Positions 8,692 through 57,935 of a DNA stretch of 64,000 bases are shown here, piece after piece. Made by a program: the position numbers and the translations under genes. The stretch is from the NCBI GenBank assembly GCA_937127125.1, contig CAKZLO010000034.1, forward strand, positions 17,257 through 81,256, read 5' to 3'. Origin of the DNA: an uncultured Ardenticatenia bacterium (GTDB lineage Bacteria > Chloroflexota > Anaerolineae > 4572-78 > NAK82). The notes below the pieces were generated by a model. The model was not told where the DNA came from and did not search any database. It saw only the letters and a list, made by a program, of their open reading frames with translations. Each line of letters starts with the position of its first letter. Position 1 is the stretch's first letter.

Positions 8692-8763
8692 CAGTAGGAT
8701 CACCTGTCTGGGCAGGTATTTACGTAAAGCTTCCCTTGCTGTACTCCTCTCCCTGTCTGCATC

Positions 8764-8792: not shown

Positions 8793-8841
8793 CGTCTACC
8801 TTAGAAGCGTTCTCACGCCCCAATATGGCGTAAGGCCACCG

Positions 8842-16759: not shown

Positions 16760-16769
16760 GTGATATCAC
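16760..16769. promoter_or_regulatory. Perfect 10-bp palindrome GTGATATCAC just upstream of the hdrC RBS (candidate operator)
   Basis: GTGATATCAC lies 23 nt before ATG 16792. A related GTGTATCACTT occurs about 84 nt upstream (16677-16687). Confidence 0.25.
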
Positions 16770-16791
16770 TTACCCAAGGAGGTATCTACCC

Positions 16792-17373
16792 ATGACAGCA
16801 ACTGCTATCGCTGCGCGAGCGCCCACGTTTCTTGAAGAGGTGATCGCGCGCACTCCTGGTGAGTCCCACCTGGAACGGTGTATCCAGTGTGGTACTTGTG
16901 GTGGTTCTTGTCCTTCCGGGGCAGATATGGAACACACCCCGCGTGGACTGTTCGCTCTGATCAATGCCGGCTTGAGGGAACTGGTCCTGCGTAGCAATGC
17001 CCCGTGGTATTGCGTGTCGTGCTATTACTGTACGGTGCGATGTCCCCAGCAGATCCATATCACCGACGTAATGTATACACTGAAACGCATGGCAATTGAT
17101 GAAGGCTACTACACGGAGTCGACAGCGCGTGATGCACCAGAGTTTTCCAAGACCTTCATCGATTTTGTGGAAAGCAATGGTCGCAGTTTTGAGCTCGGCT
17201 TGGCCACTGCTTACCACTTGCGCCATCGCCCGCTCAATGCTGTTGGTATGGTGCCAATGGCGGTGGGGATGCTTCGTCGTGGACGTATGGACCTCGTACC
17301 GACGAGGATCAAAGGCATCAAACAGCTCCAAGCGATTCTTAAGAGGGCCAAGGAATTGGGAGGTGCAAAATGA
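16792..17373 (+). CDS. hdrC: Heterodisulfide reductase subunit C-like (2x[4Fe-4S])
   Basis: Two ferredoxin motifs, CIQCGTCGGSCP and CVSCYYCTVRCP. ATG 16792 lies 9 nt after AAGGAGG. The track's earlier start at 16744 lacks an RBS. Confidence 0.8.
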   Translation: MTATAIAARAPTFLEEVIARTPGESHLERCIQCGTCGGSCPSGADMEHTPRGLFALINAGLRELVLRSNAPWYCVSCYYCTVRCPQQIHITDVMYTLKRMAIDEGYYTESTARDAPEFSKTFIDFVESNGRSFELGLATAYHLRHRPLNAVGMVPMAVGMLRRGRMDLVPTRIKGIKQLQAILKRAKELGGAK

Positions 17374-18332
17374 GGTACGGGTATTATCCCGGCTGTTCCC
17401 TCGAGCGCAGTGCGGCCGCTTATCACCAGTCGGCAATGGCTGTAGTGCAAACGTTGGGGATTGATCTGGTCGAGATTGACGATTGGAACTGTTGCGGGGC
17501 GACCGAGTACTTCTCAATCAACTTACTGCCTGCTTACGCCCTTGTGGCGCGCAACTTAGCGTTGGCGCAGGATCAGGGAATCAGCAATCAACTGGTGGCT
17601 CCATGTAGTGCCTGCTTCCTGAACCTTACCAAGACCGATCGGTATATGATGGAGTCTTCTAAACTGGCTGCTGACGTCAATGAGGCGCTGGCAGCTGGTG
17701 GGTTGCATTACACCCCTGGCACCGTACGGGTACGTCATCTGCTAGAGGTGATTGTGAATGACGTAGGCTACGATGCAGTAGCTGCACGGGTGAGCAAGCC
17801 GCTAACCGGATTGCGCGTAGCAGCTTACTATGGCTGCCTCATTGTGAGGCCAGGGTATGGAGGGATATTCGATGACCCGGAGCATCCTACTGCCTTGGAC
17901 AAGCTAATGCGTGTATTAGGTGCAGAGGTGGTGGATTTCCCGTTGCGAGCGCAGTGCTGTGGTGGTCATATGACACAGATCAGCCAGGAGGTGGCATTCG
18001 AGATGATCCGCCGTCTCCTGAAGAATGCCGCCGACTACGAGGCAGACGTGATCGTGACAGTGTGTCCTATGTGCCAGCTCAACTTGGATGCCTATCAACC
18101 CAACGTGAACCAGTTTTTCGGGACTGATTACACGATACCTGTGCTGTACTTTACCCAACTGATGGGGCTGGCCTTTGGTGCTTCCCCGATCGAATTAGGC
18201 ATCGGCAAGGAGTTTGTGGATGCTCGGCCTGCTCTGGATAAGATTGGGGTAGCGCTGCCGTTGACCGAAGCGCCACGTAGGCCGGAGAGACCAAAGGAGG
18301 CTCTTCCGATGCCGCGTATGGAGGAGGAATAA
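17370..18332 (+). CDS. hdrB: Heterodisulfide reductase subunit B-like (two CCG domains)
   Basis: 320 aa with YYPGCSL, WNCCGA and AQCCGGH cysteine-rich CCG motifs. ATGA overlap with hdrC. Confidence 0.85.
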   Translation: MRYGYYPGCSLERSAAAYHQSAMAVVQTLGIDLVEIDDWNCCGATEYFSINLLPAYALVARNLALAQDQGISNQLVAPCSACFLNLTKTDRYMMESSKLAADVNEALAAGGLHYTPGTVRVRHLLEVIVNDVGYDAVAARVSKPLTGLRVAAYYGCLIVRPGYGGIFDDPEHPTALDKLMRVLGAEVVDFPLRAQCCGGHMTQISQEVAFEMIRRLLKNAADYEADVIVTVCPMCQLNLDAYQPNVNQFFGTDYTIPVLYFTQLMGLAFGASPIELGIGKEFVDARPALDKIGVALPLTEAPRRPERPKEALPMPRMEEE

Positions 18333-18334
18333 AC

Positions 18335-20347
18335 ATGAACGAAGAACGCATTGGGGTATACGTATGCCATTGTGGCAGTAATATTGCTGGCACAGTGGCT
18401 GTGGAGGAGGTAGCTCAATGGGCTGCCAAGTTGCCAAATGTGGTGGTGTCGCGTGATTACAAATTTATGTGCTCCAGCTTGGGCCAGGAGCTGGTAGAAA
18501 AGGACATCAAGGAGCTCGGTCTGACACGCGTCGTGGTGGCAGCATGCTCCCCCCATATGCATGAGCGTACGTTCCGCGCGACATGCGAACGTGCAGGGCT
18601 GAATCCCTTCTTGTTCGAGATGGCCAATATCCGTGAGCTCGACTCGTGGGCGACGGATGATCGCGCGGCTGCGACCCAGAAAGCGAAGGCGATGGTGAGC
18701 GCGGCGGTGCGGCGTGTTGTTTACCATCAGCCTCTCCAATTGCTGCCGGTTAAGATCAATCCCAACACATTGATCGTCGGGGGAGGGGTAGCCGGCATTA
18801 CTGCCGCTTTGGAGATCGCTAACGCTGGTTATCACGTGTATCTAGTTGAGCGCGAACCCTCGATCGGTGGACATATGGCCCAGCTGGACAAGACGTTCCC
18901 TACGCTGGATTGCTCGGCATGCATTCTAACGCCTAAGATGGTGGACGTGGCTCAGAACAAGAATATTACTCTGCTCAGCTGGAGCCAGGTTGAGGCTGTT
19001 GAAGGATATGTGGGCAATTTCACTGTCACAGTGCGCAAGAAGGCGCGCTACGTGAACGAGGAGAAGTGCACGGGCTGCGGCATCTGTATCGAGAAGTGCC
19101 CCAAGAAGGTGATAGATGAAGTCTTTGAGGCAGGCTTGGGTTACCGCAAGGCAATCTATCGCCCCTTCCCGCAGGCGGTGCCCAAGTATCCGGTGATCGA
19201 TACGTCCAATTGTATTTTCTTCCAACGCGGTAAGTGCAAGGCTTGCCAGATGTTCTGCCCCACCGATGCGATAGACTTCGAGCAGCAGGACCAGATCCTC
19301 AAGCTCGAAGTGGGCAACATCATCTTGGCGATCGGGTACGACACTTTTGACCCGCGGCGTATCCCACAATACGGGTATGGCCGGCTAGCCAATGTGTTCA
19401 CCAGTCTTGAGTTTGAACGTATGGTCAATGCAGCTGGCCCCACAGGCGGTCGCATTGTATTGCGGGATGGGGTAACAACGCCTAAGAGTGTGGCGATCAT
19501 CCACTGTGTGGGATCGCGCGATAAGAACTACAACGAGCACTGTTCGCGCATTTGTTGCATGTACTCGCTGAAGTTCTCCCATCTCTTGCACGAGCGGTTG
19601 CCTGATGCCCAGGTGTATGAGTTCTACATTGATATTCGCGCCACGGCTAAGCGCTATGAGGAATTCTACCATCGCGTCTTGGAGGAAGGAACTCGCTTCA
19701 TCCGTGGTCGCGTGGCGGAGGTGACCGACGCGGCGCGTATGCCCGGTGAGGAAGGCAAACTAATCGTGCAGTATGAAGACACATTAATCGGCAAGCAGCG
19801 TCGCCTACCAGTGGACATGGTGATTCTGAGCCTTGGCATGGAAGCGCGCCGTGACTCGCGTGAGGTGGCCCAAATCTTTGGTCTAGGATGCGAGTACAAT
19901 GGCTTCTTCATCGAACGGCATCCCAAGCTCGATCCAGTTAACACAATGACCGAAGGCATCCAAATCGCTGGAGCGTGTCAGGGACCAATGGCCATTCCTG
20001 AGGCAGTAGCACAGGGGGCTGCTGCAGCCGCTCGTGTGCTCTCGTTGATCAGCCAGGGCACTGTGATGATGGAGCCGGTGCGGGCACACATCGATGCCGA
20101 CAAATGTTCCGGTTGTCGTATCTGCAACAACCTGTGCCCTTACAATGCGATAGTTTTCCACGAGGATCGCAAGGTTTCGGAGGTGATCACGGCGCTCTGC
20201 CAGGGGTGTGGCGCTTGTGTGGCGGCCTGCCCAAGTGCTGCGATTACTGGTGCTCATTTCACAGACGAGCAGGTAATGGCACAGATCGAGGGTATGCTGT
20301 GGGATGTGCAACCACAGTTTGCTATGACCTCTATGGAGACAAGGTGA
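18335..20347 (+). CDS. hdrA: Heterodisulfide reductase subunit A-like (FAD + multiple FeS)
   Basis: 670 aa with the FAD fold IVGGGVAGITAALEIA, the HdrA-specific CVGSRD...HCSRICC, and several CxxCxxCxxxCP ferredoxin motifs. Confidence 0.9.
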   Translation: MNEERIGVYVCHCGSNIAGTVAVEEVAQWAAKLPNVVVSRDYKFMCSSLGQELVEKDIKELGLTRVVVAACSPHMHERTFRATCERAGLNPFLFEMANIRELDSWATDDRAAATQKAKAMVSAAVRRVVYHQPLQLLPVKINPNTLIVGGGVAGITAALEIANAGYHVYLVEREPSIGGHMAQLDKTFPTLDCSACILTPKMVDVAQNKNITLLSWSQVEAVEGYVGNFTVTVRKKARYVNEEKCTGCGICIEKCPKKVIDEVFEAGLGYRKAIYRPFPQAVPKYPVIDTSNCIFFQRGKCKACQMFCPTDAIDFEQQDQILKLEVGNIILAIGYDTFDPRRIPQYGYGRLANVFTSLEFERMVNAAGPTGGRIVLRDGVTTPKSVAIIHCVGSRDKNYNEHCSRICCMYSLKFSHLLHERLPDAQVYEFYIDIRATAKRYEEFYHRVLEEGTRFIRGRVAEVTDAARMPGEEGKLIVQYEDTLIGKQRRLPVDMVILSLGMEARRDSREVAQIFGLGCEYNGFFIERHPKLDPVNTMTEGIQIAGACQGPMAIPEAVAQGAAAAARVLSLISQGTVMMEPVRAHIDADKCSGCRICNNLCPYNAIVFHEDRKVSEVITALCQGCGACVAACPSAAITGAHFTDEQVMAQIEGMLWDVQPQFAMTSMETR

Positions 20348-20351
20348 AACA

Positions 20352-20828
20352 ATGAACGACTCGTATGAACCCGTTATCGTCGGTTTCCTGTGCAACTGGT
20401 GTTCTTACCGTGCTGCTGACCTGGCTGGCACATCCCGTCTCCATTACGCACCAAATATGCGGCCTATTCGTGTGATGTGCAGCGCTCGAGTGGAGCCGCA
20501 GTTTGTCTTGAAAGCTCTGCGCGAGGGCGCTGATGGTGTGTTGATCGCAGGTTGCCACCCCGGTGAATGTCACTATGTGGATGGCAACATCAAAGCGCTA
20601 AGACGCTATGAACTGCTCAAGCGGATGTTGCGTCAACTGGGTATAGAAGAGGAGCGTGTCCAGCTCGTCTGGGCAGCAGCTTCCGAAGGTAATGTGCTGG
20701 CCGATGCAGTGAATCGTATGACCGAACAGCTGCGCCGCCTAGGGCCCTTGCGCTGGCGTGAGACAGTCTTGGGTGGCGATGCTCAGCCCGAAGAACGCGC
20801 TGGTGAAATGATGGCCAAGGAGGTTTGA
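20352..20828 (+). CDS. mvhD: Methyl-viologen-reducing hydrogenase delta subunit (MvhD-like)
   Basis: 158 aa with FLCNWCSY and GCHPGECHY, the cysteine pattern characteristic of MvhD. Confidence 0.85.
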   Translation: MNDSYEPVIVGFLCNWCSYRAADLAGTSRLHYAPNMRPIRVMCSARVEPQFVLKALREGADGVLIAGCHPGECHYVDGNIKALRRYELLKRMLRQLGIEEERVQLVWAAASEGNVLADAVNRMTEQLRRLGPLRWRETVLGGDAQPEERAGEMMAKEV

Positions 20829-20832
20829 CGTT

Positions 20833-21852
20833 ATGATGGCCAAGAAAAAACCGAGATTTGCCATGTACTGGGCGGCTTCTTGCGGTGGCTGTGAGATCTC
20901 GACACTCAACATCGGGGACAAGATTCTGGCGGTGGATGAAGCGTTTGACATCGCCTTCTGGCCGTGTGTGGCTGATTTCAAGGTGAAAGATGTTGAGAGG
21001 TATCCGGATGGCTATATTGACTTGTGTCTTTTCAATGGAGCTATCCGCAATTCCGAAAACGAGGAAATGGCCCACCTGCTGCGCGAGAAGTCGAAGGTGC
21101 TAGTCGCGTTTGGTTCGTGCGCCAGCGAGGGGTGTATTCCCGGCTTATCTAACCTGACCACTGCGCAGGCGACCTTGCGCGCGGTGTATCTGGATAACCC
21201 TTCTACGGACAATCCTAAGAAGGTGCTGCCACAACCATTTACCAAGGTCCCAGAGGGCACAATCCGAATCCCAGAATTCTACGAGCGCGTGAAGTCGCTT
21301 GACCAGGTGGTGCCAGTGGATTACGTGATGCCGGGTTGTCCACCAGAGGCGAAACAAATTGCGGCGGTAATGGATGCTGTTATCACAGGTGTCGCACTGC
21401 CCCCGCCTGGCCGGACTGTCATTGGTGCAGGTAATGTGGCGGTTTGTGAGGAATGTCCCCGTCAGAAGAACGTCAAACAGATCAAACGCTTTTACCGTCT
21501 CCATGAAATCACCCCGGATCCCGAGATCTGTCTGCTCGAGCAGGGCATCGTGTGTATGGGGATTGCCACGCGTGCTGGTTGTGGGGCGCTGTGCCCAAGG
21601 GTGAATATGCGCTGTGAGGGGTGTTACGGGCCGCTGAACGGCATAGAGGACCAAGGGGCCAACATGGTTGCGGCAATTGCCTCAGTAATTGAGGAGGGAT
21701 CGGGTCCGCTGGCTGGCGTTGATGAAGCTGAGCTGCAGCGCCGCATTGGCGAGATAATGGAAACCTTAGTCGACCCAGCGGGTACCTTCTATCGCTTCAA
21801 CATGGCTCACTCGCTGCTGATGCGTGCCCGTTTCAAAGGGGATGTTGTCTAG
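20833..21852 (+). CDS. mvhG: [NiFe]-hydrogenase small subunit (MvhG-like)
   Basis: 339 aa with the N-terminal proximal-cluster motif YWAASCGGCEIS, then GSCASEGCIPG, and C-terminal cysteine clusters. Confidence 0.8.
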   Translation: MMAKKKPRFAMYWAASCGGCEISTLNIGDKILAVDEAFDIAFWPCVADFKVKDVERYPDGYIDLCLFNGAIRNSENEEMAHLLREKSKVLVAFGSCASEGCIPGLSNLTTAQATLRAVYLDNPSTDNPKKVLPQPFTKVPEGTIRIPEFYERVKSLDQVVPVDYVMPGCPPEAKQIAAVMDAVITGVALPPPGRTVIGAGNVAVCEECPRQKNVKQIKRFYRLHEITPDPEICLLEQGIVCMGIATRAGCGALCPRVNMRCEGCYGPLNGIEDQGANMVAAIASVIEEGSGPLAGVDEAELQRRIGEIMETLVDPAGTFYRFNMAHSLLMRARFKGDVV

Positions 21853-21867
21853 AAAGGAGCAGCTTAG

Positions 21868-23349
21868 ATGAAGCAGATTATGATAGATCCAATCACGCGC
21901 TTGGAAGGCCACGGGAGGATTGACATCTTCCTGGATGACAAGGGTGAAGTAGCAAATACTTACTTTGTCATTCCTGAGCTGCGTGGTTTTGAACAGTTCT
22001 GCGTGGGACGACCGGTGGAGGAAATGCCCCGTATTACTAACCGCATTTGTGGCGTCTGTCCTGAAGCACACCACATGGCGGCCACTAAAGCATTAGATGC
22101 ACTCTACCATGTGGAACCCACGCCGGCGGCCAAGAAGATACGTGAAATGTTCTATTCGGCCTTCTATGTGGCGGATCATACCACGCATTTCTACGCGTTG
22201 GGTGGTCCTGATTTTGTGGTAGGCCCGGACGCTCCGCCAGCGGAACGAAATATCCTCGGTGTGGTGCACAAGGTGGGGTTGGAGATCGGCAAGCAGGTGA
22301 TTGATGCACGTGTCCGCAACCATCATGTCATTCAAATGGTGGGAGGACGAGGTGTCCATCCGGTGGCTGGTCTGCCTGGAGGCTGGAGTAAGTCTATAAC
22401 GAAGGAGGAACGGGACGAGATTGAGCAGATCGCCCGCCAGAACGTCGACTTTGGTCTGTTCAGCTTGAAGGTGTTCGAAGACATCGTGCTCAGCAACCAA
22501 GAATATGTAGACCTCATAACCTCTGATGTCTATACACATCGCACCTATTACATGGGTACAGTGGACGCCAGCAATCGCGTCAACTTCTACGATGGCATGG
22601 TGCGTGTGGTGGACCCAGACGGGAATGAATTCGTCAAGTATCATCCCAAGGACTACTTACAGCACATCGCGGAACACGTTGAGCCATGGACCTACCTTAA
22701 GTTTCCCTTCCTTAAGGCAGTTGGTTGGAAGGGATTCGTGGATGGGGTGGATAGTGGTGTCTATGTCGCTACACCCCTGTCACGATTGAATGCCGCGGAC
22801 GGCATGGCGACGCCGCGGGCGCAAGAAGCGTTTGAAAAGATGTACGAGACGCTGGGCAGCAAGAAGGTGAATGGGCGTTATGAGCCAGTGCACTTCCGAC
22901 TGGCGACCCATTGGGCACGGTTAATTGAGCTTTTGTATGCCGCCGAACGCATGTTGGAACTAATCGGTGATCCAGAGATCACTGACCCGAACACACGAGC
23001 ACCCATAACAGCCACTCCGGATGAAGGTGTAGGCTGTGTTGAAGCTCCCCGCGGCACACTAACACATCACTATTGGACAGACGAGCGAGGGATTCTGACG
23101 AAGGTGAACCTGATCGTGGGTACCACCAACAATTATGCACCCATCGCGATGTCTGTCAGGAAGGCGGCGCAATCTCTGATTAAGAAGGGCACTGTGATCA
23201 CGGATGGGCTGCTCAATCGTATCGAGATGGCTTTCCGGGCGTACGATCCTTGCTTGGGCTGTGCCACGCATTCGCTGCCGGGCCAAATGCCCTTGGAGGT
23301 GACCATTTACGCGCCGGATGGCAGCGTGATCGAGCATCTGAAGCGGTGA
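21868..23349 (+). CDS. mvhA: [NiFe]-hydrogenase large subunit (MvhA-like, probable group 3c)
   Basis: 493 aa with the L1 motif RICGVCPEAHH and L2 motif DPCLGCATH (23245-23271), followed by a 25-aa C-terminal tail of the kind removed by a maturation protease. Confidence 0.9.
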   Translation: MKQIMIDPITRLEGHGRIDIFLDDKGEVANTYFVIPELRGFEQFCVGRPVEEMPRITNRICGVCPEAHHMAATKALDALYHVEPTPAAKKIREMFYSAFYVADHTTHFYALGGPDFVVGPDAPPAERNILGVVHKVGLEIGKQVIDARVRNHHVIQMVGGRGVHPVAGLPGGWSKSITKEERDEIEQIARQNVDFGLFSLKVFEDIVLSNQEYVDLITSDVYTHRTYYMGTVDASNRVNFYDGMVRVVDPDGNEFVKYHPKDYLQHIAEHVEPWTYLKFPFLKAVGWKGFVDGVDSGVYVATPLSRLNAADGMATPRAQEAFEKMYETLGSKKVNGRYEPVHFRLATHWARLIELLYAAERMLELIGDPEITDPNTRAPITATPDEGVGCVEAPRGTLTHHYWTDERGILTKVNLIVGTTNNYAPIAMSVRKAAQSLIKKGTVITDGLLNRIEMAFRAYDPCLGCATHSLPGQMPLEVTIYAPDGSVIEHLKR

Positions 23350-48011: not shown

Positions 48012-48305
48012 TTATTTATTTGTGTCTTTCCCAGAATCACCCACCCCGGCGACACGTGCCAACATGTGACGCATCACACCGGATTGAGAGCCTCCAGCAT
48101 TGCGATAAGCTCGCTGGCGCTGCAGGAGATGGTGAGTCCTGAGCAAACGGCGCAAACGAGAAAGGCCAGATGCTGGCTGTGCGCGCAACCAGCGGCCGAG
48201 AAGGGCAGCATGAACCCCGGGACGTGTCCAACTGCGACGTGCTAGCTCTGCAATTTTCTCCAAGGTGTTCAAGACGGTGGGATCACCTATGTCCTGTTCG
48301 TTCAT
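48012..48305 (-). CDS. Hypothetical Arg-rich 97-aa protein, ATGA-coupled to lspA
   Basis: An ORF fills the lspA-rluD gap, and its ATG at 48305 overlaps the lspA stop. I recognise no motif, and high GC could generate it by chance. Confidence 0.3.
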   Translation of the reverse strand: MNEQDIGDPTVLNTLEKIAELARRSWTRPGVHAALLGRWLRAQPASGLSRLRRLLRTHHLLQRQRAYRNAGGSQSGVMRHMLARVAGVGDSGKDTNK

Positions 48306-48856
48306 GATTGTGCCTCCCCATCCACCCGACTGCGCTCGCTGCTGGCCTTCCCTCGTTCCATATGTTCTATACGCCACAGTCGGTATACGATCAGAAGTAT
48401 CCCGATTGTAATCGAAGCGTCCGCGAGGTTGAAGATAGGCCAGAAACTGATGTCAATGAAGTCGATTACATACCCCAGACGTAGACGGTCGAGCAGATTG
48501 CCAATTGCTCCACCCAGCTGCAATCCCAAGCTGATTCGGATGAGCCAGTCTCCGGCGGGCAGCTGACGATAGTAGACCACAATAGCTATTACGACGGCCA
48601 CTGCGATCAGAATGAAAAGATTGCCCTGATTAGGCAATATACCAAATGCTGCACCGCTGTTGGTGGTATGAGTAATGCGGAAGAGGTCTCCCAGCTCGCC
48701 CGGCAAAGGGCTCCACCAATGTCCTTCAGGCAGCGATGCCACTACCCAGGATTTACTGAGCTGATCTAGGCCGACAACGGTGACCGCAAGCAAGGCTAAC
48801 AGCAAGAAAGGCAAACTTCCCTTCCAACTTGTTGTGCGAGCAAGTGGGTTTGCCAT
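48302..48856 (-). CDS. lspA: Lipoprotein signal peptidase II
   Basis: LDQLSK, NSGAAFG and IFNLADASI (catalytic Asp region), with 4 TM segments. The start is taken at ATG 48856. Confidence 0.85.
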   Translation of the reverse strand: MANPLARTTSWKGSLPFLLLALLAVTVVGLDQLSKSWVVASLPEGHWWSPLPGELGDLFRITHTTNSGAAFGILPNQGNLFILIAVAVVIAIVVYYRQLPAGDWLIRISLGLQLGGAIGNLLDRLRLGYVIDFIDISFWPIFNLADASITIGILLIVYRLWRIEHMERGKASSERSRVDGEAQS

Positions 48857-48986
48857 ATCTCTGTCCTCCAAATATCGCTTATGGATTGTAATGCACGTGC
48901 AAGGAGGGTGCAAGGATGGTCGAAGTCGGATGGTAAGTGCACATTCTAGCGCTTCTTTAGCTAGCGTTTGGGGCAGGCTCCTTCGC

Positions 48987-49640
48987 CTACAGGCATTCGG
49001 TCCGTTTCAATGTCAAGGTTTCACATTCAGCCTGAAAAGACAACTGACTACAAAAAGATTGCCAATCCTCAGGGGTGTCTAGGTCGAATGCCAGAGTCGG
49101 GGTTCGCAGAACGGTAGGCCGAACACCAATCAAGCGCGCAGAGGCCAGATGGCGGGGAAAGCTCGCTGGTCCGAATGCGAACGGAATAAGCAACGGCGGT
49201 CGCATCAGCAGTGCATTTGTCCCTATGCTTCGTCGACACGGAGCGATAACCACGGCAGGCGCATCAGTTGCTAGGCGTAGCAACGTTTGTACATCCCTAT
49301 CCGTAAGAAAGGGCAGATCGGTTGGCAGTACCAGAATTCCATCGGCACCACAAGCAGATGCAAAGTGACTTGCTTGTGTGAGCGCAGCGTTCAGATCACT
49401 ACCCTCTTCTTTCAATGGCAAGCCTCCTCCCATTTGTGTGTCCTTGAGCACCCGCGGATCACGGCTGATCACCACTACGCGGGCAAAGTGACGTCGCGTC
49501 AGACGTAGCACGCGGCTGAGCAACCAACGGCTCAGCCACATGCGTTGGGTAACATTGAGACAGGCCGCTAGGCGCGTTTTTGCCTCTTGGTAAGGCTTGC
49601 ATGGCACAATGCACACAATGGAGACAGATCCACTGGGCAT
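48987..49640 (-). CDS. cofC: 2-phospho-L-lactate guanylyltransferase (F420 biosynthesis, CofC/FbiD-like)
   Basis: IVPCKPYQEAKTRLA, LPTDLPFL and GTNALL patterns of the CofC family. It lies immediately downstream of cofD. Confidence 0.65.
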   Translation of the reverse strand: MPSGSVSIVCIVPCKPYQEAKTRLAACLNVTQRMWLSRWLLSRVLRLTRRHFARVVVISRDPRVLKDTQMGGGLPLKEEGSDLNAALTQASHFASACGADGILVLPTDLPFLTDRDVQTLLRLATDAPAVVIAPCRRSIGTNALLMRPPLLIPFAFGPASFPRHLASARLIGVRPTVLRTPTLAFDLDTPEDWQSFCSQLSFQAECETLTLKRTECL

Positions 49641-49647
49641 ATGCTGA

Positions 49648-50661
49648 TCAACCTTGCAGGGCAAATTGGAGGATTTCGCGTGCTAGGCGCGCACGATCTG
49701 GTTCGTCGCGCATTATGATGTCAGTTGCCAGGGTACGGATACCCATCTGCTCAGCAATCACAGCAGCGCACGGAACATCCTGACGGTCAAGCACAAAGCC
49801 GGTGAGTAGATCACGATAGTGTGCCGCGACTGTCACAGGTGAAGCTTCCATGTTCAGCTCGTTCATCATCTTGGCAGCAGGTCCTTTAAGGGCCCGTCCT
49901 GCCACAATGGGAGAGATGGCGATGCGTGGCGCACGCACAGTGCTCAGGATACGTCGCATTGCTGGCAACGCGAGAATAGGGTCCAAGCTGACGAACGGGT
50001 TGGAGGGTCCAAACAAGATCACATCGGCGTTGCGCAGCGCACTGACTACCTCTCGTGTAGGCTGTGCTTGCTCAATCCCCTCAAAGCGGACACCCTTTAT
50101 CCTTGGCTGCCATGCGTAGCGCACGAAATACTCTTGGAAGGCTATTTCCCCATTTTCTGTAAGTACTCGTGTATGGACTGGATCGTCGCTCATCGGCAGT
50201 ATCGTCTGAGGCACACCCAGCAGCCAACACAATTGACGGGTGACCCAAGTGAGCGGAAATCCCTCGCGCAACCATTGGCTACGCAACAAATGGGTGGCCA
50301 GATCGCGATCGCCCAAGCGAAACCAAGTGGGTGCTTCGTAACAAGCCAGCATGGCGAGCGTATTCCACGTGTCATCTTTTATACCCCAGCCGGTCTCAGG
50401 GTTCACCAGGCCGGCGAGCGTGTACATCACTGTATCCAGGTCCGGCGAGATATGCAGTCCCAGATGTTCAAAGTCATCGGCGGTGTTGACCACGAATGTC
50501 AAACGTTCCGGAGGCAACAACTGTGCTAATCCGGAGGCCAGCTTGGCGCCACCTACTCCTCCGAGCAATGCCACAATATTAACTTCAGGGAGCTCGGAGT
50601 TAACAACTTGCGCAATTGAAGTGTCTTGTCTCTCTTCTTCGTGGTGTACTGCTGCATCCAT
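49648..50661 (-). CDS. cofD: 2-phospho-L-lactate transferase (F420 biosynthesis)
   Basis: 337 aa with LLGGVGGAKLA, NTADDFEHLGLHISPDLD and GPSNPFVS motifs. Confidence 0.85.
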   Translation of the reverse strand: MDAAVHHEEERQDTSIAQVVNSELPEVNIVALLGGVGGAKLASGLAQLLPPERLTFVVNTADDFEHLGLHISPDLDTVMYTLAGLVNPETGWGIKDDTWNTLAMLACYEAPTWFRLGDRDLATHLLRSQWLREGFPLTWVTRQLCWLLGVPQTILPMSDDPVHTRVLTENGEIAFQEYFVRYAWQPRIKGVRFEGIEQAQPTREVVSALRNADVILFGPSNPFVSLDPILALPAMRRILSTVRAPRIAISPIVAGRALKGPAAKMMNELNMEASPVTVAAHYRDLLTGFVLDRQDVPCAAVIAEQMGIRTLATDIIMRDEPDRARLAREILQFALQG

Positions 50662-50804: not shown

Positions 50805-51797
50805 TCAGCTCATTCCCGCTTGATGTAGCAACTTGAGCGCGTACAGTGCTCGCAATGTTACCCATTTGTTGGCGCAGCCGAGTTCACCGAAACTGGCCCA
50901 CATTTTGCTGGGCGTACGTTCCAGAGGCCATTTACCCTCAGTAAGCTGCTTGTTTAACAACCAAGGAAGACACTCTTGCACATACGGATGTTTTGCATAG
51001 CCTGCCAACGCCAGCACAGTCATTGCCTCGAGCAGGTCAGCTTGGCAAGTCAGAGGAAATGCCAGAGCAAACCACAATGGGCTGACCGAGCTGCTGGTCG
51101 GATATGCTGCTTCGAGCAATGGCTTGGAAAGGAGTAGCTCTATTCCACACTCAATTGCGGCGTTGATATCTGCTGTCCGCCGTTTTGTGTCCAGATCCAA
51201 GAAAGCGTGAAGCATTTTCACTGCGCCCCAAGCACACGGCAAATATTGATTGTTTGTACACGCGAATGCGTGCTTAACGGCCTCTCGCGCTGTGGCTTCA
51301 CGGGCTTGAATCACTCGCGGATCATCCGTATAGCTGAGCCGCTGGAACGCCCACAAGAGTGCACCGTCGAGGCAGTTGAGCCTAACGCGAGACGCGTGAC
51401 CAGCAACGAAACGTCCTGTAGAAGGACATCGGCCTCTTTTCAGTATGTGCTCGCAAGCACGCTGTAGTGGTGGGATGAGCGGGGTACCCAGCTGAGCTAG
51501 AAACAGAACTTGCCACATTGTGGCACGATGTCGGGGGCTGTACATCGCCTCTGGTCTGATCCAGTAACCACCGTGCACCTGCGTACCGTTGGATGAGACC
51601 GGGTACTGAGCTTCCAATATGTGCAGAGCAGGTGACACGCTGGGGATATCGTTTCGTGCTGCATGCACCTCTAGTGCATTAGATGGTAGCTCCAGCAATT
51701 GCGTCAACGCCAGATAGCGCGCCGAGGGATTCTCCTCTTGCAGCAACCAATCAAGCGCCCGATCGCGTAACACGAAGTAACATTCCGCTCGCTTCAT
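50805..51797 (-). CDS. Hypothetical protein, probably an alpha/alpha-toroid (prenyltransferase/terpene-cyclase-like) repeat fold
   Basis: ~330 aa and helical, with recurring aromatic/Gly-containing repeats and a C-terminal KWVTLRALYALK. The assignment is by resemblance only. Confidence 0.35.
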   Translation of the reverse strand: MKRAECYFVLRDRALDWLLQEENPSARYLALTQLLELPSNALEVHAARNDIPSVSPALHILEAQYPVSSNGTQVHGGYWIRPEAMYSPRHRATMWQVLFLAQLGTPLIPPLQRACEHILKRGRCPSTGRFVAGHASRVRLNCLDGALLWAFQRLSYTDDPRVIQAREATAREAVKHAFACTNNQYLPCAWGAVKMLHAFLDLDTKRRTADINAAIECGIELLLSKPLLEAAYPTSSSVSPLWFALAFPLTCQADLLEAMTVLALAGYAKHPYVQECLPWLLNKQLTEGKWPLERTPSKMWASFGELGCANKWVTLRALYALKLLHQAGMS

Positions 51798-51859
51798 CCG
51801 TCGCCTGTGATGTTCCAAGATTATGGGGAGGTAATGAAATCCTCGGCTTTTTTTCGTTC

Positions 51860-52642
51860 TTAGTTTGCATCCAACAGTGCACGCGCCGTGCATAGTACTG
51901 TGTCCAACATGCGAGGGGAAAGTCGTCCGGTTTGCGTGTTCTGTCGGCTGGGGTGATAGGAAGATATCAGATGTATGGACGTGCCCCAATTGCGATGTAC
52001 CACGCGGTAGTGCTGTCCGTGGGCGAAATGGATTCGAGGGACATCATAGCCATGTTCTGTGAGTAATTGTCGACACCCCTCAAAAGCTAATTGGCCCAAA
52101 GCGATCATTACGCGTATCCTGCGCAATAACTGCCATTCTCGGGCCAGAAATTGGCCGCAGGCTTCGATCTCATCCTTCGCTGGTCGATTGGCGGGTGGCA
52201 CACAACGCACGATTGCCGTGAGGAAAGCATTGCGAAGTACGAGGCCATCATCACGATGAGTGGCCTGCGGCTGACTGGCGAAGCCGGCGCGATACAATGT
52301 AGCATACAGTGTATCACCGGAACTGTCGCCGGTGAACATACGACCAGTGCGGTTGGAGCCGTGAGCTCCTGGTGCCAATCCCACAATTAGCAGGCGAGCA
52401 TCATAATCCCCAAAGCCGGGCACCGGTTGACCCCAATATTCCCAGTCCTTGTAAGCGCGCCGTTTCTCGCGGGCTACTTGCTCACGCCAGTGCACCAGAC
52501 GTGGACAGCGGCGACATTGTACGATCTCAGTGACCAATCGTTGCCACTCGGACAACATCCCGTGATCGCATTTGTCCGTAGTGGAGTTATCGCTGGGATG
52601 TTGCATGACCGGCGAGCAAACAGGCAACTCAGGATCTCTCAT
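51860..52642 (-). CDS. Uracil-DNA glycosylase, family 4/5 superfamily (motif fits family 5/UDGb)
   Basis: FeS cysteines (CRRCPRL) and motif A, GLAPGAHGSNRTGRMFTGD, as opposed to GE(A/G)PG in family 4. The ATG overlaps the upstream stop (ATGA at 52639-52642). Confidence 0.75.
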   Translation of the reverse strand: MRDPELPVCSPVMQHPSDNSTTDKCDHGMLSEWQRLVTEIVQCRRCPRLVHWREQVAREKRRAYKDWEYWGQPVPGFGDYDARLLIVGLAPGAHGSNRTGRMFTGDSSGDTLYATLYRAGFASQPQATHRDDGLVLRNAFLTAIVRCVPPANRPAKDEIEACGQFLAREWQLLRRIRVMIALGQLAFEGCRQLLTEHGYDVPRIHFAHGQHYRVVHRNWGTSIHLISSYHPSRQNTQTGRLSPRMLDTVLCTARALLDAN

Positions 52643-55600
52643 TTCCTCTCGCCGGCGAATTGTAGCGGAGGCGGAAACTCAAGCAAGCGGTGATTGTCCG
52701 AGTCGACGACGAGAAGGTTGCCATTGGCCTCGAATGCCATTCCCAAGGGCAAAGCGAAAGAGACCATGTCTGCTCCGTACTGGCCAAAACTCAGTAAGAA
52801 GTTGCCTTGAGAGTCAAACACTAGAATGCGGTAGCGCTCTGGGTCGCTGCAATACACATTCCCTTGGCTGTCCACGCGCACGTAGGGCTTGTTTACCACC
52901 GATTGACTCTCCCAGCTCTCAATCGACCACTGACGCAGAGGCACCATCTCTGCCGAGAACGCTTGGATGCGGCGATTCCAAGTGTCCGCCACGTAAATAG
53001 TTCCATCTGGCGCAAAAGCTAGACTGGTTGGTTCATCGAAGCGTCCAGGTAGGATGCCAGCACCACCCCATTGGGCAATGAACTCACCATCCGCTGTGAA
53101 TTTTTGGATGCGCTTGTTGCCGGTATCGGCTACATAGACGTTACCCTCAGCATCGATGGCGAGGTCACGTGGTCCCCAGAAGCCGCCTGGGTCGCGGTCA
53201 GCCTCTCCTCTTGTGTCGGCAAAGTAACCCCAAGCGAAGAGGAACTTACCTTCCAGATCAAAGACCTGGATGCGATGATTCCATGTATCTGATACGTACA
53301 CGCGACCGTCACGCGTATTGACAGCGATGCCCCATGGTTCCTGGAACTCACCTGGCCCGCTACCGCTGCTACCCCACCGGAGTACCACATTGCCGTCAGC
53401 GTCAAACACCTGAATGCGGTTGTTACCGCTATCTGCAACATACCAGAGACCGTCTGCACCTACGGCGACAGTCCGCGGCGTAGTGAGTTGCCCTGCACCG
53501 GCGCCGTGGCTGCCGATGGCGCGCTTCGCTTGTATTTCGCGGTGTTTCGTCGCGTATGGCTCGGTGGGCATTTCGGCTGGCACCGGGCCGGTATGATAGT
53601 CCCACAGTTGATTCAGCACATCTTTGCGCACGTACATGTAAAAGCGATGCACATATGGCCACTGGTTCTTAGGTGTCCTATGACGATGGTAGAAAAAGAT
53701 CTCCCACAATTCTTTGCGATTCTCAAACACTTGGTTCCAAGCTGCCTGCCGTCCGACAGGATCCTCGGGCAGTGTCTCAGGCACAAAATAGGTGTGCCAT
53801 ATTTTGGCCGGGGTCTGATTCTTGTAAGTCTCTAGCGGCCACCACACCAACCGATAGTTAAAGCGCACATAGTTATCACCCAGGTAGGGGGTCACTTTGC
53901 TCTCGTTGGATAGCCCTACAATGACAATGGGTGCCTCCAAGTGTTGTCGTGAAGGTGTGTCTCCGTAATAAGTGCGATTGGGGTACTCGCGAAAATACCA
54001 CTCCAGCGGCCATGTTGATTCATTGTCATAAGCGACCTTAATCAGCTTGTCGCCTACTGTGCGCCGGGATATCTCCTCAATTTGCTGCATCGCTAATGTG
54101 ACATCAGGCGCCCCGTGGGCATAGAAGAGATATTCGCTTACGTTGTCGTAGTTGATAAACGAAACCAGCCAGGAAGAACGTGCGGTAAATATTGCCAGTA
54201 CAGCCAACAGTGTGAGGAAAACAACCCTTATGACCAGGAACCCTCCCAGCTGGCGCCCATAGTGGACTAATGCGTAGACGAGCAAGGCGATCACTACCAC
54301 ACTACCCAACCATTGGCCAGTGTCGCGCAGGTCCAGGAGTGAGTACCCGCGGAAAGGTTGTATACTGAACAGAGCCACTAATGCCAGTGCTGTCAGGGGC
54401 AGGAGTACAGCGAAAAGCACCCCTCCACGCTCCCAGAGCGCTTGCCATCGTCCTTGTAATCCGGTCAATACGCGCTCGCTGGTCCAGGCGGCCAGGAATA
54501 TGAGCGGCAAACTCATGTGGGTAGTCAACCACGGCATCTTCTCACCAGCCCAGCTGTAAATTAGGACAGCTGTGACCGTCCAATAGAGGAGAAAGGCGGG
54601 GAAGTATACGTGCAGTACGCTCTTCGCATCCAGTGACGCTCCATCAGTGGGTGTCTTCGCTTCATCTAAGTTGCGTTTTGTCAGCATCTGACGTGTGACG
54701 CGCAATCGGTGGGCCAGATACCATATTCCGCCGGCAGCCCCCACGAAGAAGGGCAAGAATTCGTACAGGGGCAGCAGCATCAGATAGTAATACCAAGGTT
54801 GGTTGCCTCGTTGTACATCCTGCTGGCTCAGCCAGTAGGAGAGCCCTCCCCATGTGCCAGAAATCAAGCCATATGGGTTGGTAAAGAAGGTGGTATACAG
54901 TACCACAAAAATTGCTAAACCTATCACTAAAGCGATACCGACCTCACGCAGAGGGAGAGAACGCAGCGCCTCGGTCATTGCACGAACGGGGAGAAGCTGT
55001 ACTCGTCTTTCTGTGGAAACGATCCCATCGGTGATGCTCAACGTCAGTGTCGTGGCAGCGAAGAAAAGACCAGTCACCAATACCAGCAGATGGATGATCT
55101 TCCAGACAGCTCGCGCACTCTCTTGGGGTATAGCATTTGTGTCAGCAGCAAGGCCGCCCACGAGTTGTTGCAGACCGCTTATCACTTGACGTGCCAGGTG
55201 GGGTGATCGATCTGCCCCAACGGGATCGGCATTGCCAAAGGTAAGCCAAAGGACCACTATACCTATTACTGCCGACACGGCCAAGCCAATCCAAAAGAGA
55301 CGACGACGCTGTGCCAGCGGGAGGTTTTCTAGCAAGGAAATCACCACTATGAAGGTGAAACCGATAAAGCCATGGATGTAGGCAATTTCCATAACTGTCA
55401 ACGACAATGCCACAGCAGCTGCTCCAATGTACAACCAGCGCTTCATCCGCTGGAAGTCGTTTTGCTGCCGAGCAGCCAGGTAGTGAAACAGGCTGAAGTA
55501 CATGATCAATGTAAAGAACTCATTGAAGATGTCATGGCGCAAGTGACGGCTGTAATGGGTGATAACCGGCGAGATAAGAATCATTGTGGAAGCAATCAGT

Positions 55601-56001
55601 GCACCCAAGCGCCCTAACCAAGGTCGAAACCAATAGGGCAACATCACCAGCCCCACGCCGAACAACGCTACACCAACACGCCCTACGTAGTTGTTGTCTC
55701 CAAACAAGAAGAACAAGAGGGCATTGAATTCAAATAGGAAGGGCCCGTGCATCATGGGGTCGTGGCGATATCCTTCCCCGTTGAAGAGCTTGTAGGAGTA
55801 TAGCATGTGCAAGCTCTCGTCGTGGCTGATAGCACGTGATCCCAAGTCATAGAAGCGCGTGAAGACAGCTAAGGCGAGCAACAACCCATATGCAATGGTC
55901 TCGCGATGCCTAATAATCCAGTGCCATAATGAATTACCTGTTACGTCTGCAGAGGGTGCGACATCTTGAGCATTTGGTACGACCTTGGAGATCATAACCA
56001 C
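52639..56001 (-). CDS. TIGR03663/Agl23-like GT-C-type membrane protein fused to a C-terminal six-bladed NHL-repeat domain
   Basis: 1120 aa. The N-terminal FTRFYDLGSRAISHDESLH (DE at 55816-55821) and MMHGPFLF (HGP at 55741-55749) match the invariant residues I recall for TIGR03663. There are more than 12 TM segments. Six NHL repeats occupy ~52650-53490 (VADSGNNRIQVFD, VSDTWNHRIQVFD, VADTGNKRIQKFT, VADTWNRRIQAFS, CSDPERYRILVFD, VVDSDNHRLLEFP). Confidence 0.75.
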   Translation of the reverse strand: MVMISKVVPNAQDVAPSADVTGNSLWHWIIRHRETIAYGLLLALAVFTRFYDLGSRAISHDESLHMLYSYKLFNGEGYRHDPMMHGPFLFEFNALLFFLFGDNNYVGRVGVALFGVGLVMLPYWFRPWLGRLGALIASTMILISPVITHYSRHLRHDIFNEFFTLIMYFSLFHYLAARQQNDFQRMKRWLYIGAAAVALSLTVMEIAYIHGFIGFTFIVVISLLENLPLAQRRRLFWIGLAVSAVIGIVVLWLTFGNADPVGADRSPHLARQVISGLQQLVGGLAADTNAIPQESARAVWKIIHLLVLVTGLFFAATTLTLSITDGIVSTERRVQLLPVRAMTEALRSLPLREVGIALVIGLAIFVVLYTTFFTNPYGLISGTWGGLSYWLSQQDVQRGNQPWYYYLMLLPLYEFLPFFVGAAGGIWYLAHRLRVTRQMLTKRNLDEAKTPTDGASLDAKSVLHVYFPAFLLYWTVTAVLIYSWAGEKMPWLTTHMSLPLIFLAAWTSERVLTGLQGRWQALWERGGVLFAVLLPLTALALVALFSIQPFRGYSLLDLRDTGQWLGSVVVIALLVYALVHYGRQLGGFLVIRVVFLTLLAVLAIFTARSSWLVSFINYDNVSEYLFYAHGAPDVTLAMQQIEEISRRTVGDKLIKVAYDNESTWPLEWYFREYPNRTYYGDTPSRQHLEAPIVIVGLSNESKVTPYLGDNYVRFNYRLVWWPLETYKNQTPAKIWHTYFVPETLPEDPVGRQAAWNQVFENRKELWEIFFYHRHRTPKNQWPYVHRFYMYVRKDVLNQLWDYHTGPVPAEMPTEPYATKHREIQAKRAIGSHGAGAGQLTTPRTVAVGADGLWYVADSGNNRIQVFDADGNVVLRWGSSGSGPGEFQEPWGIAVNTRDGRVYVSDTWNHRIQVFDLEGKFLFAWGYFADTRGEADRDPGGFWGPRDLAIDAEGNVYVADTGNKRIQKFTADGEFIAQWGGAGILPGRFDEPTSLAFAPDGTIYVADTWNRRIQAFSAEMVPLRQWSIESWESQSVVNKPYVRVDSQGNVYCSDPERYRILVFDSQGNFLLSFGQYGADMVSFALPLGMAFEANGNLLVVDSDNHRLLEFPPPLQFAGERK

Positions 56002-56033
56002 CTCATCTCAGCAGCTTGGTCAGATACTGACTG

Positions 56034-57935
56034 CTACTTTTCTAATGTGCTTGCAGCGGGTGGCTGTTTCACCCACAGCACCACTTTGTTGGAGAACGTT
56101 GGCTGCATCTCACGCAGCAAATACCAGCGAATGAACGCTCGAAATGGCATCGATGTGGGCTGCCAATAGTTGTGCACTATGAAGTCCTGGCCAGCATAAG
56201 GCTCATCTGTTAACAATGTGTCTTCAGGGGCAAGGATGACGTCGGGAAGGTGGAAGGATGAACCTGGCTGCTCATATTCCATCGGCAAACGTTCTAAAGA
56301 GTTTACCCAACGCACATTTGGGAAAGAACGCAATTGCCACTCCACCGCTGCACCCACAGCACGACTTGCCAAGAGGTCCACTAGGTAGGGGTCGTTTGCC
56401 TTCTTGGTGGAAACGAACTGTAGTACAGCTACCAGATCTCGCATGCCTTCACCTGCTGACGTGCGGACCAAAGGTTGGGAGGCATCCGCGACTGGAACAT
56501 AGTTAAGCCGCACCGCACTAGCTATCTGGAATAGGAATAATACAGCGATAATGGTAAATGCTGCACCTCTTAGAGCAGAGATTTTGTCATACCATTGCCA
56601 GTACACGACGACCAATGCCACGAACATTCCAATAGCTGCCAGTGGCTGCCAGACAACACCGTAACCGCTTGTATATATCATCAGTGTGACATAAGCGAAA
56701 GCAGCGACGGTTAGTCCGGTCAACACAACTGTCTTGTCGCGCTTCCAATCCTCTCGACTCTGTGCTGTTCCCGCCAGCTGCCCTATTGCCAGACCGGCCA
56801 GTAACGCTGCTGGCCACAGAGTCAGCAACACCTCGCCTGAGGAACGACTGGGACGCAGTGCATCCAGCAACACTCCACTACAGAACCACCATGCTAGGAA
56901 TATATGAAAGAACCGACGCCTTGTCAGAGCAATCCCCAAACCAAACAAGGCACTCAGCAGAGTGAGCGGCTCGTAAAGGCCGAGCAACCATAAAGATGGA
57001 TAAACGGGATCAATCACAGGTGGTGTCGCAAGACGTACTCCTCCTGCCTCTGGGGGCATAAAACCACGTGCCCACTCACCTATTTGATCCACTGTGGTCG
57101 CCAGGCCATTCAGATTGAGGAACAGACCGCTGGCTGCCGCGGCAGCTAGAATGAGAATCATCACCAGCGTCCTTCTTCGAGTGAGCAAAGCGGTGCGCAA
57201 GCAAGTGATTACTTCGCTCAACCACACGACACGCTTTCCACGGCTTGCCAATGATAAAGCTACAACGAACATTAGTAGCAGTCCCAGCCCTGAGCCAGCT
57301 AGGGGTGAGGAGATCACCATTAATGCTAACCCAGCAGCTGCCATCACTGCTCCAATACCCTGCCGACTGGCTACCTCGCCCTCCATGCGAACGAGGCCCA
57401 GAAGCACCAGTGCAGTACCCACGGTGGCAACGACATCGCCGTTTACCGTACGGGACAGATGCAATGCTGCTGGAGAAATACACAAGAGAACCCCAGCACT
57501 TATGGCGCCGACCCTGCCCACATAGCGACGCAATCCCAGCGGTAGGATAACCAACAATGCACCCGACACAGCGGGTGTGACCCGGGCAGTGAACTCGGTG
57601 GCACCCCACAATGCAAAAGTGATGAAGTTGACCGTTGCCAGTAATGGGCTGTAATGGCTGTAGCTGACCTCCTTGCCCTGATAGAGCTGCCAGCTTACCA
57701 GCGCTTGAGTTGCTTCGGCATCCGAGAGTGGTCGGGTCCCCAAATCGGCCAGCCGCGTCACCAACGCCAACAGTGCAAGCATAATCCATATGACAATCTC
57801 AATCTTGTCAAACGATTTTGCGCGAATTGGGGAGTCCGGCTCCACAGTATGGTCCGTGGTCATACGCTGAGAAGAGTGCGAGCGGATCGGGTCGGCAGAT
57901 TGATCTGGTAGTGACATCATAGGCAGGGATGTCAT
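56034..57935 (-). CDS. Degenerate TIGR03663/Agl23-like polytopic membrane paralogue
   Basis: 633 aa. It has the same architecture and the same post-TM domain as the downstream gene (EWQLRSFPN vs EWYFREYPN; NYWQP vs VWWP), but the signature residues are replaced (SDAEA for HDES; SHYSPL for MHGPF). Confidence 0.6.
   Translation of the reverse strand: MTSLPMMSLPDQSADPIRSHSSQRMTTDHTVEPDSPIRAKSFDKIEIVIWIMLALLALVTRLADLGTRPLSDAEATQALVSWQLYQGKEVSYSHYSPLLATVNFITFALWGATEFTARVTPAVSGALLVILPLGLRRYVGRVGAISAGVLLCISPAALHLSRTVNGDVVATVGTALVLLGLVRMEGEVASRQGIGAVMAAAGLALMVISSPLAGSGLGLLLMFVVALSLASRGKRVVWLSEVITCLRTALLTRRRTLVMILILAAAAASGLFLNLNGLATTVDQIGEWARGFMPPEAGGVRLATPPVIDPVYPSLWLLGLYEPLTLLSALFGLGIALTRRRFFHIFLAWWFCSGVLLDALRPSRSSGEVLLTLWPAALLAGLAIGQLAGTAQSREDWKRDKTVVLTGLTVAAFAYVTLMIYTSGYGVVWQPLAAIGMFVALVVVYWQWYDKISALRGAAFTIIAVLFLFQIASAVRLNYVPVADASQPLVRTSAGEGMRDLVAVLQFVSTKKANDPYLVDLLASRAVGAAVEWQLRSFPNVRWVNSLERLPMEYEQPGSSFHLPDVILAPEDTLLTDEPYAGQDFIVHNYWQPTSMPFRAFIRWYLLREMQPTFSNKVVLWVKQPPAASTLEK

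Follow-up and report, generated by a model that had tools for sequence, protein, structure and literature searches.

Do two adjacent genes for related membrane proteins, one with a complete glycosyltransferase-like signature and the other with part of it missing, encode partners in a single envelope activity? The question is raised by a tandem on the minus strand of a 64,000-nucleotide stretch of DNA (the window) from an uncultured Ardenticatenia bacterium of the Chloroflexota, in which an earlier note, made from the letters alone, had seen a possible catalytic/pseudo-enzyme pair. We call the 633-aa protein small and the 1120-aa protein large. We established the homology of the two proteins, their fold, the conservation of their motifs and their synteny, and on this basis we propose that the pair is a heteromeric glycosylation module of the cell envelope, dependent on polyprenyl-phosphate-sugars, whose two members would act together at the cytoplasmic membrane. 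We put the probability of this reading at about one half. The features on which the argument depends, all on the minus strand, are the following.

56034-57935, minus: small paralogue, 633 aa, ATG start in the list of open reading frames (ORFs)
57711-57731, minus: external loop 1 motif PLSDAEA of the small protein, counterpart of AISHDES in the large one, with Ala73 at the position of the catalytic Asp
57645-57653, minus: YSP of the small protein, equivalent to HGP of the large one
56002-56033, minus: intergenic spacer of 32 nt (38 nt if the large gene begins at the ATG at 55995)
52639-56001, minus: large paralogue, 1120 aa, GTG start in the ORF list
54154-56001, minus: residues 1-616 of the large protein, its membrane domain, with 15 predicted membrane helices and the N-terminus inside
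55807-55827, minus: SHDESLH in external loop 1 of the large protein, the 'DE' catalytic motif of GT-C glycosyltransferases as judged by conservation and by PMC12705809 and PMC8698208
55741-55749, minus: HGP of the large protein, invariant in its family
54784-54798, minus: PWYYY of the large protein, with P402 and Y404-Y406 invariant, at the external start of a membrane helix
53572-54153, minus: post-membrane alpha/beta domain, large residues 617-810, common to small residues 480-633
52672-53523, minus: six-bladed NHL beta-propeller, large residues 827-1110, predicted to be extracytoplasmic

Two paralogues with different loop signatures

BLASTP aligned residues 34-207 of the large protein with residues 46-209 of the small one at 32% identity (E 3e-20) and also matched the regions past the last membrane helix of both proteins (E 9e-4). 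Comparison of the two family alignments with hhalign joined large 30-743 to small 42-610 with a probability of 99.95% (E 4.9e-38), a homologous span of about 570 residues. By these comparisons the two proteins are paralogues across the whole membrane domain and the alpha/beta domain that follows it, and the large protein has about 80 additional residues (approximately 260-345, two more membrane helices) plus its C-terminal extension. Both programs also place the DE and HGP motifs in equivalent columns: S71-D72-A73-E74-A75 of the small protein aligns with S-H-D-E-S of the large one, YSP falls on HGP, and N165 sits where the large protein has R155. In the joint alignment both families share three Arg, the Glu from DE and the Pro from HGP. 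The E-values of this homology, together with the recurrence of the pair in other genomes, rule out a chance resemblance. The earlier note had reported two adjacent minus-strand ORFs of 633 and 1120 aa with a 32-nt gap, a shared architecture with a common post-membrane domain, and SHDESLH and HGP in the one protein against SDAEA and YSP in the other at equivalent places; coordinates, BLASTP and hhalign bear out each of these statements.

The large protein belongs to the TIGR03663/Agl23 family, as the earlier note had suggested. Members of this family share, near the N-terminus, an invariant DE dipeptide, an HGP tripeptide and two Arg. Against the NCBIfam model, the large protein reaches 241.5 bits (E 1.8e-71, cut-off 126.25), with residues 38-674 covering profile positions 4-431 of 435; the model bears the title "flippase activity-associated protein Agl23" and is of subfamily rather than equivalog type. 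Conservation was analysed in 35 orthologues at 47-81% identity, in which the DE, HGP and Arg signature is present: R56, S59, H60, D61, S63, L64, H65, H85, G86 and P87 are invariant, as are R108, R126, R152, R155, P402 and Y404-Y406, and E62 is conserved in at least 90%.

The small protein, in contrast, reaches 99.9 bits against TIGR03663 and stays under the cut-off, as do all eight of its sampled relatives (52-115 bits). The DE and HGP signature is replaced by A73-E74 and Y95-S96-P97, PWYYY by PVYPS, and Pfam gave nothing significant. The description of the tandem as a TIGR03663-like pair thus holds for the large protein, and the small one falls short of the family threshold. Together with the fast evolution of the small gene, the fastest of the locus, the low score and the lost signature residues are what one would expect of a decaying duplicate, a pseudogene in the making without a function of its own. 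Conservation across the family refutes this explanation in practice, and we give it next to no credence. When 1.84 billion representative proteins were searched exhaustively with the family profile, the counts were 6400 relatives at E<=1e-3 and 1386 representatives at E<=1e-30. Nearly all of the 150 strongest matches have 560-715 aa, and a few are shorter fragments. A word-indexed search with the small-family profile added almost nothing, so that the true size of the family is visible only by exhaustive search.

We aligned the window protein with 141 of the best hits. Within these 142 sequences E74, R118, G125 and R162 are conserved in 142, R61 in 141, R136 in 133, A75 in 130, P97 in 127 and S96 in 117. 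Variation is found at position 73, the site of the catalytic Asp (A36, G21, S15, D13, R10, E10), at position 72 (D34, A30, E19) and at position 95, the His site (Y55). The signature of the family therefore reads P-L-x-x-x-E-A ... S-P ... R ... R ... S-P ... S-R. Intact, full-length orthologues with the same motif were present in every locus examined, the gene order is kept down to 27% identity, the fold is predicted with confidence (pLDDT, the predicted local distance difference test, 84), and the Glu and Arg positions are 100% invariant. Because this sister family has strict invariants of its own, the small protein is a member of an old, large, stable and unnamed sister family of TIGR03663, and not a recently degraded copy. 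Of the "degraded signature" noticed earlier, the loss of the Asp of DE and of the His-Gly of HGP stands, and the idea of degradation does not. The earlier note had also held that its proposal would fail if the small protein retained the acidic and HGP residues at shifted positions; half of this was found, the Glu and the Pro being kept, in place. A conserved Asp displaced by one residue (D72) was rejected as a family feature, as Asp occurs there in just 34 of the 142 sequences; D72 is a peculiarity of the clade of the window. Relatives are named "hypothetical protein", "predicted membrane-bound mannosyltransferase" or, by JGI, "TIGR03663 family".

Fold, topology and the predicted external propeller

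GT-C enzymes build most extracytoplasmic glycans. The AlphaFold2 model of the small protein (pLDDT 84.4, predicted template-modelling score (pTM) 0.86) has 13 membrane helices and an external C-terminal alpha/beta domain (480-633). A Foldseek search of the PDB with this model returned only GT-C glycosyltransferases at the top (28 matches at E<=1e-3). The best match is ArnT (5ezm; E 6.9e-10, TM 0.52/0.60, 630 aligned columns), and AglB, STT3, ALG9, ALG12, PglB, Pmt4, EmbC and AftA are also matched. The model of the large protein, built with AlphaFold2 from the 35-sequence alignment (pLDDT 82.7, pTM 0.74), has 15 membrane helices, and its Foldseek matches are NHL propellers, with TM 0.89-0.92 to the NHL domains of TRIM71 and Thin, and including the extracellular sensor domain of PknD (1rwl). 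We conclude from the models that both proteins fit the GT-C superfamily at the level of the fold, the small one directly and the large one through its homology to the small one.

To orient the proteins, model helices were taken as membrane segments and Lys plus Arg (K+R) were counted in the short loops. An N-inside topology leaves 23 such residues inside versus 11 outside for the large protein, and 19 versus 7 for the small one. By these counts the first long loop, with DE and HGP, and the entire C-terminal part are placed outside, an arrangement shared by all solved GT-C enzymes. The acidic residues of external loop 1 are D61-E62 in the large protein and E74 alone in the small one. The NHL propeller is predicted to be extracytoplasmic, which agrees, as a prediction, with what had been suggested before; bacterial NHL domains do occur outside the cell, for instance in the PknD sensor (1rwl). 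The six C-terminal NHL repeats of the earlier note are likewise recovered: Pfam matched the large protein with NHL-type families only (PF01436, E 7.9e-45, 149 bits, five repeats over threshold), and the AlphaFold model has six four-stranded blades in residues 827-1110 with pLDDT >90. The fused architecture is widespread in metagenome-assembled genomes of the Anaerolineae type, with more than 110 clusters at 92-100% query coverage and a few more partial ones, under names that include "TIGR03663 family protein", "flippase activity-associated protein Agl23" and "6-bladed beta-propeller". ScyF was rejected as the identity of the NHL domain (191 bits against a cut-off of 350), the similarity being generic to NHL domains.

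The function of the loop residues can be approached from studied enzymes. In protein mannosyltransferases (PMTs), mannosyl transfer proceeds with inversion and is catalysed by an invariant DE motif, located in the loop that joins membrane helices 1 and 2 (PMC12705809). D113/E114 and H159/P161 of loop 1 were among the conserved residues picked for mutagenesis in the Pmt of S. coelicolor, and H159 corresponds to ArnT K85; D/E and H/P residues of this loop are essential to Pmt and ArnT (PMC8698208). By analogy, the HGP of the large protein would lie in the same loop as Pmt H159/P161 and ArnT K85, at a position of contact with the lipid phosphate. For the small protein these comparisons point two ways. 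The Asp of ArnT tolerates neither Glu nor Asn, as D55E and D55N lose function (PMC8698208), and an Asp is critical in PMT/ArnT-type enzymes; in the GT-C enzyme CeDPY19, the catalytic base is Glu71 of external loop 1 and E71D keeps about 80% of the activity, so both acids occur in nature (PMC10154233). Both proteins could thus be active glycosyltransferases, working sequentially or on different acceptors, with Glu74 as the base of the small one. Glu74 is found in 142 of 142 sequences on the same loop-1 helix as the DE motif, Arg61, Arg118 and Arg162 are invariant, as expected of a phosphate-binding site, and the family is large and clearly under selection. It nevertheless lacks the HGP His, Arg155 and PWYYY, all invariant in the large family, and the small protein evolves about twice as fast as its partner; we judge two active transferases possible but, on balance, unlikely. 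The loss of Asp and His argues for a loss of canonical catalysis in the small family, and the invariant Glu allows it to be read as an active enzyme. Because some GT-C enzymes use Glu as a base, a pseudo-enzyme status of the small subunit is only plausible. Of the catalytic/pseudo-enzyme pair put forward earlier, the loss of Asp and His-Gly in one member is real, and the pseudo-enzyme half is no more than plausible, given the Glu base of CeDPY19.

Gene order and the DUF2298 partners

In the spacer between the two genes we found a ribosome-binding site, GAGG, and no terminator-like hairpin on the minus (coding) strand, which we count in favour of a joint role of the pair. The promoter and terminator scan gave counts no higher than the shuffled expectation and was used solely for the absence of a terminator between the genes. 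GAGG lies 5 nt upstream of an in-frame ATG of the large gene at 55995 and the database copy of the large protein has 1118 aa, so the large gene probably begins at this ATG rather than at the GTG at 56001. The database copy of the small protein has 628 aa and begins at the second ATG, 57920, and the starts of the ORF list (GTG 56001; ATG 57935) probably both lie a few codons too far upstream. At its stop codon the large gene runs 4 nt into the start of a uracil-DNA-glycosylase-family (UDG) gene.

We compared the locus with those of other genomes. The order small then large is kept in every locus that reaches far enough to include the downstream gene. In the close clade, seven loci, six of them distinct, carry the two genes in this order on one strand (L001, L002/L011, L003, L008, L009, L010 and L012; L011 is the same contig as L002), and the order in close relatives is Met_synt_B12-like, small, large, UDG. 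The same adjacency is found in the distant genomes L013, L014, L016 and L019 (the latter identical to L004). Between members of the same pair of genomes, the small proteins are about 58% identical, the membrane domains of the large ones about 79% and their NHL domains about 85%; in terms of sequence, the faster evolution of the small protein fits a non-catalytic partner.

The earlier note had expected TIGR03663 to co-occur with TIGR03662, and the window does contain two TIGR03662 partners, encoded on the plus strand some 37 kb from the small/large pair by genes that overlap by 4 nt.

8764-13572, plus: fusion of a GT-C (PMT_2) module with DUF2298/TIGR03662, 1602 aa, TIGR03662 score 516.8 bits (cut-off 300.25)
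13569-16241, plus: DUF2298/TIGR03662 (Chlor_Arch_YYY) protein, 890 aa, TIGR03662 score 548.4 bits (cut-off 300.25)

The N-terminal GT-C module of the 1602-aa protein has a DE motif of its own, LPHPDERS. DUF2298 genes adjoin the small/large pair in L004, L005/L006, L013, L014, L016 and L020-L023. Orthologues of the 890-aa protein lie directly upstream of the pair in L013 and L014 (DUF2298, small, large). L016 has the GT-C-DUF2298 fusion, DUF2298, 1.6 kb, small and large; L004/L019 has the fusion, DUF2298, an extracytoplasmic function (ECF) sigma factor gene, a 258-aa gene, small and large; and L005/L006 has a PMT_2 protein, the fusion, DUF2298 and small. An independent sample of four large-family members at 49-52% identity (loci L020-L023) gave the same picture: each has an upstream gene of 600-660 aa with YPLSxxEA, followed by YSPLL in three and by YSPLI in L022, and each has one or more DUF2298 genes and an ECF sigma factor nearby. 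As distant Chloroflexota keep the DUF2298 genes beside the pair and the window has both pairs apart, the ancestral layout, so far as gene order tells, is a cluster of all four genes, which then separated into two pairs in the clade of the window. The pair thus holds as a unit across the Chloroflexota loci examined, and it makes up only half of a four-gene module with the two DUF2298 proteins.

Some further features of these clusters were noted. In L004, L020, L022 and L023, the ECF sigma factor gene and a gene of 176-258 aa (a possible anti-sigma factor) stand between the DUF2298 and small genes, which hints at regulation by envelope stress; the pair locus of the window has neither gene. The sole interruption seen between small and large is in L020, from an Anaerolineales genome, where an insertion (6976-9877) encodes a NotI-like restriction endonuclease and an N6/N4 methyltransferase. 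The invariant motifs of DUF2298, namely EK..E, DP...I.YYY.G and E-F-P-x-F-S-F-x3-D-x-H-P-H, suggest an enzyme or a metal site. DUF2298 was also considered as a remote relative of TIGR03663, as both have YYY, and this was rejected at the sequence level (hhalign probability 0.4% for single sequences, 1.2% for profiles).

The other neighbours in the window are varied. Downstream of the pair and on the same strand (48302-50661, minus) are CofD and CofC-like genes of F420 biosynthesis and the lipoprotein signal peptidase gene LspA; their order is kept in L001, so the clade has a long and functionally mixed syntenic block. A 394-aa ORF (50805-51989, minus) has no family match apart from a faint one to an oxidosqualene-cyclase repeat region. 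As it shares 130 nt with the UDG gene, its real start is probably downstream; its syntenic orthologues in L001 and L002 have 324-332 aa. On the plus strand, a PAP2-family phosphatase and a type I signal peptidase (3113-3781 and 6049-6759) are encoded a few kb upstream of the DUF2298 genes, and the PAP2 enzyme could recycle polyprenyl pyrophosphate. The DUF2298 genes are followed by a redox run (16744-23349, plus) with a 4Fe-4S protein, a CCG-domain (heterodisulfide-reductase-like) protein, a 670-aa FAD/4Fe-4S oxidoreductase and the small and large subunits of a [NiFe]-hydrogenase.

A candidate envelope glycosylation module

The mechanism that we propose is as follows. The pair would glycosylate a protein or a wall polymer on the outside of the cell, taking the sugar from a donor linked to polyprenyl phosphate. 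The large protein would be the catalytic subunit, with its active site at the outer face of the membrane, where H-D-E and H-G-P come close to the invariant Arg; by analogy with PMT and ArnT, the Asp would act as the base and the His and Arg residues would hold the lipid phosphate. The NHL propeller may hold or select the acceptor, in the way of the MIR domain of PMTs, the TPR domain of TMTCs or the lectin-like domain of EmbC. Since the small protein has lost the Asp, the His and PWYYY but keeps the Glu and three Arg, it would probably be a partner that still binds the lipid-phosphate carrier and is non-catalytic or only auxiliary. The two proteins may form a hetero-oligomer in the manner of Pmt1-Pmt2 or EmbA-EmbB, with the two DUF2298/TIGR03662 proteins as further components of a four-gene module.

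Several known systems share part of this organisation. Pmt1-Pmt2 and POMT1-POMT2 (GT39) have the GT-C fold and a loop-1 DE near His/Pro and Arg, are themselves obligate dimers of paralogues (PMC12705809), and have an external MIR domain that binds acceptor or product, to which the extra external domain of the large protein may be likened. They differ in having 11 membrane helices, in a MIR domain inserted in a loop rather than C-terminal, and in keeping DE in both subunits, and the likeness is one of fold only (Foldseek E 1e-4 to 4e-4). ArnT, the undecaprenyl-phosphate-L-Ara4N:lipid A transferase of family GT83, has 13 membrane helices and a C-terminal periplasmic domain like the small protein, with an Asp in its first periplasmic loop and a phosphate site of Lys/Arg type, but it is 14% identical to the small protein, acts alone on lipid A and has no propeller; lipid A synthesis is not known from Chloroflexota of this type. 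EmbA-EmbB and EmbC (GT53) are encoded by tandem paralogous GT-C genes, form heterodimers, bind carbohydrate through a C-terminal external domain and build a wall polymer from a polyprenyl-phosphate-sugar donor; in contrast to our proposal both subunits are catalytic, the domain types are others and the structural match to the small protein is weaker (E about 2e-4). In TMTC1-4, a GT-C membrane domain is followed by a non-cytoplasmic repeat domain that selects protein substrates; these proteins are eukaryotic, have TPR instead of NHL repeats and have no Asp-less partner.

The closest system by family is Agl23. The large protein passes the same family model, is polytopic and carries its DE and HGP on the first external loop, and its genome also has TIGR03662/DUF2298 genes. 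Agl23 is an archaeal protein that works with dolichol carriers and is described as a flippase; neither an NHL fusion nor an Asp-less partner has been reported for it, and the small protein is under the cut-off of its family. In liposomes, purified Agl23 of Haloarcula hispanica (HhAgl23), a putative hexose-P-dolichol flippase, moves M5GN2-PP-Dol and M3GN2-PP-Phy across the membrane, and it rescues rft1-delta yeast (PMC11182771, where Lu et al. 2020 is cited for the protein). One or both proteins of the window could likewise be mainly a scramblase or flippase for lipid-linked sugars, the small one, for example, delivering a flipped donor to the large one. The NCBIfam name of TIGR03663 refers to this activity, and the small family keeps an Arg/Glu set of the lipid-phosphate type without the base. 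However, the large protein shares its fold and its invariant H-D-E/H-G-P with outer-face transferases, an external propeller has no obvious role in flipping, and a subfamily model that is not an equivalog does not transfer function automatically; we hold a flippase role to be rather unlikely.

Our proposal that the pair transfers sugars together also has evidence to answer, and the following points weigh against it. The sole characterised member of the family, HhAgl23, is described as a lipid-linked-sugar flippase and not as a transferase (PMC11182771). The invariant Glu of the small family could itself be a catalytic base, as in CeDPY19 (PMC10154233). In the clade of the window the flanking genes (Met_synt_B12-like, UDG, CofD/CofC, LspA) are unrelated to glycosylation and give no support from local context. 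Sequence searches of the PDB with both proteins and with the small-family profile returned NHL matches only and no relative of the membrane domain. The Pfam families PF02366 and PF13231 (PMT, PMT_2) had no match at E<=1 in either window protein, and here it is the miss of the large one that counts; since many orthologues of both proteins do carry precomputed matches to these two families, the relationship to PMT/PMT_2 appears to be real but distant. Finally, the topology, donor type, subunit roles, physical association and acceptor are what we infer, with donor, acceptor and complex so derived for all bacterial members. Full-text searches found no paper on the function of TIGR03663, TIGR03662 or DUF2298 in bacteria, in keeping with the earlier statement that no functional description of such a bacterial system was known, and a tblastn search of plasmids with the large membrane domain for archaeal homologues gave no match.

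A bolder version would make the four membrane proteins an undescribed machine of Chloroflexota for envelope glycosylation or polymer assembly, in which the Asp-less paralogue is the subunit that flips or presents the carrier lipid to the NHL-bearing transferase. We consider this quite improbable as it stands; if true, a machine with such a carrier-lipid subunit would explain how the Agl23 family can have a transferase-like fold and yet a reported activity as a flippase. TIGR03663/Agl23 has one characterised member, which is archaeal and called a flippase despite its transferase fold, and the descriptions of the family are in conflict. The conservation pattern of the pair is clean and the split of functions testable, on a basis of comparative inference and for an architecture already widespread in databases. 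As a natural division of function, the Chloroflexota pair could separate the residues needed for transfer from those needed for lipid handling. The small family, with more than 1300 representative clusters annotated as "hypothetical protein", merits a model of its own, and the pair points to an unstudied four-gene envelope module in a phylum whose envelope is poorly understood.

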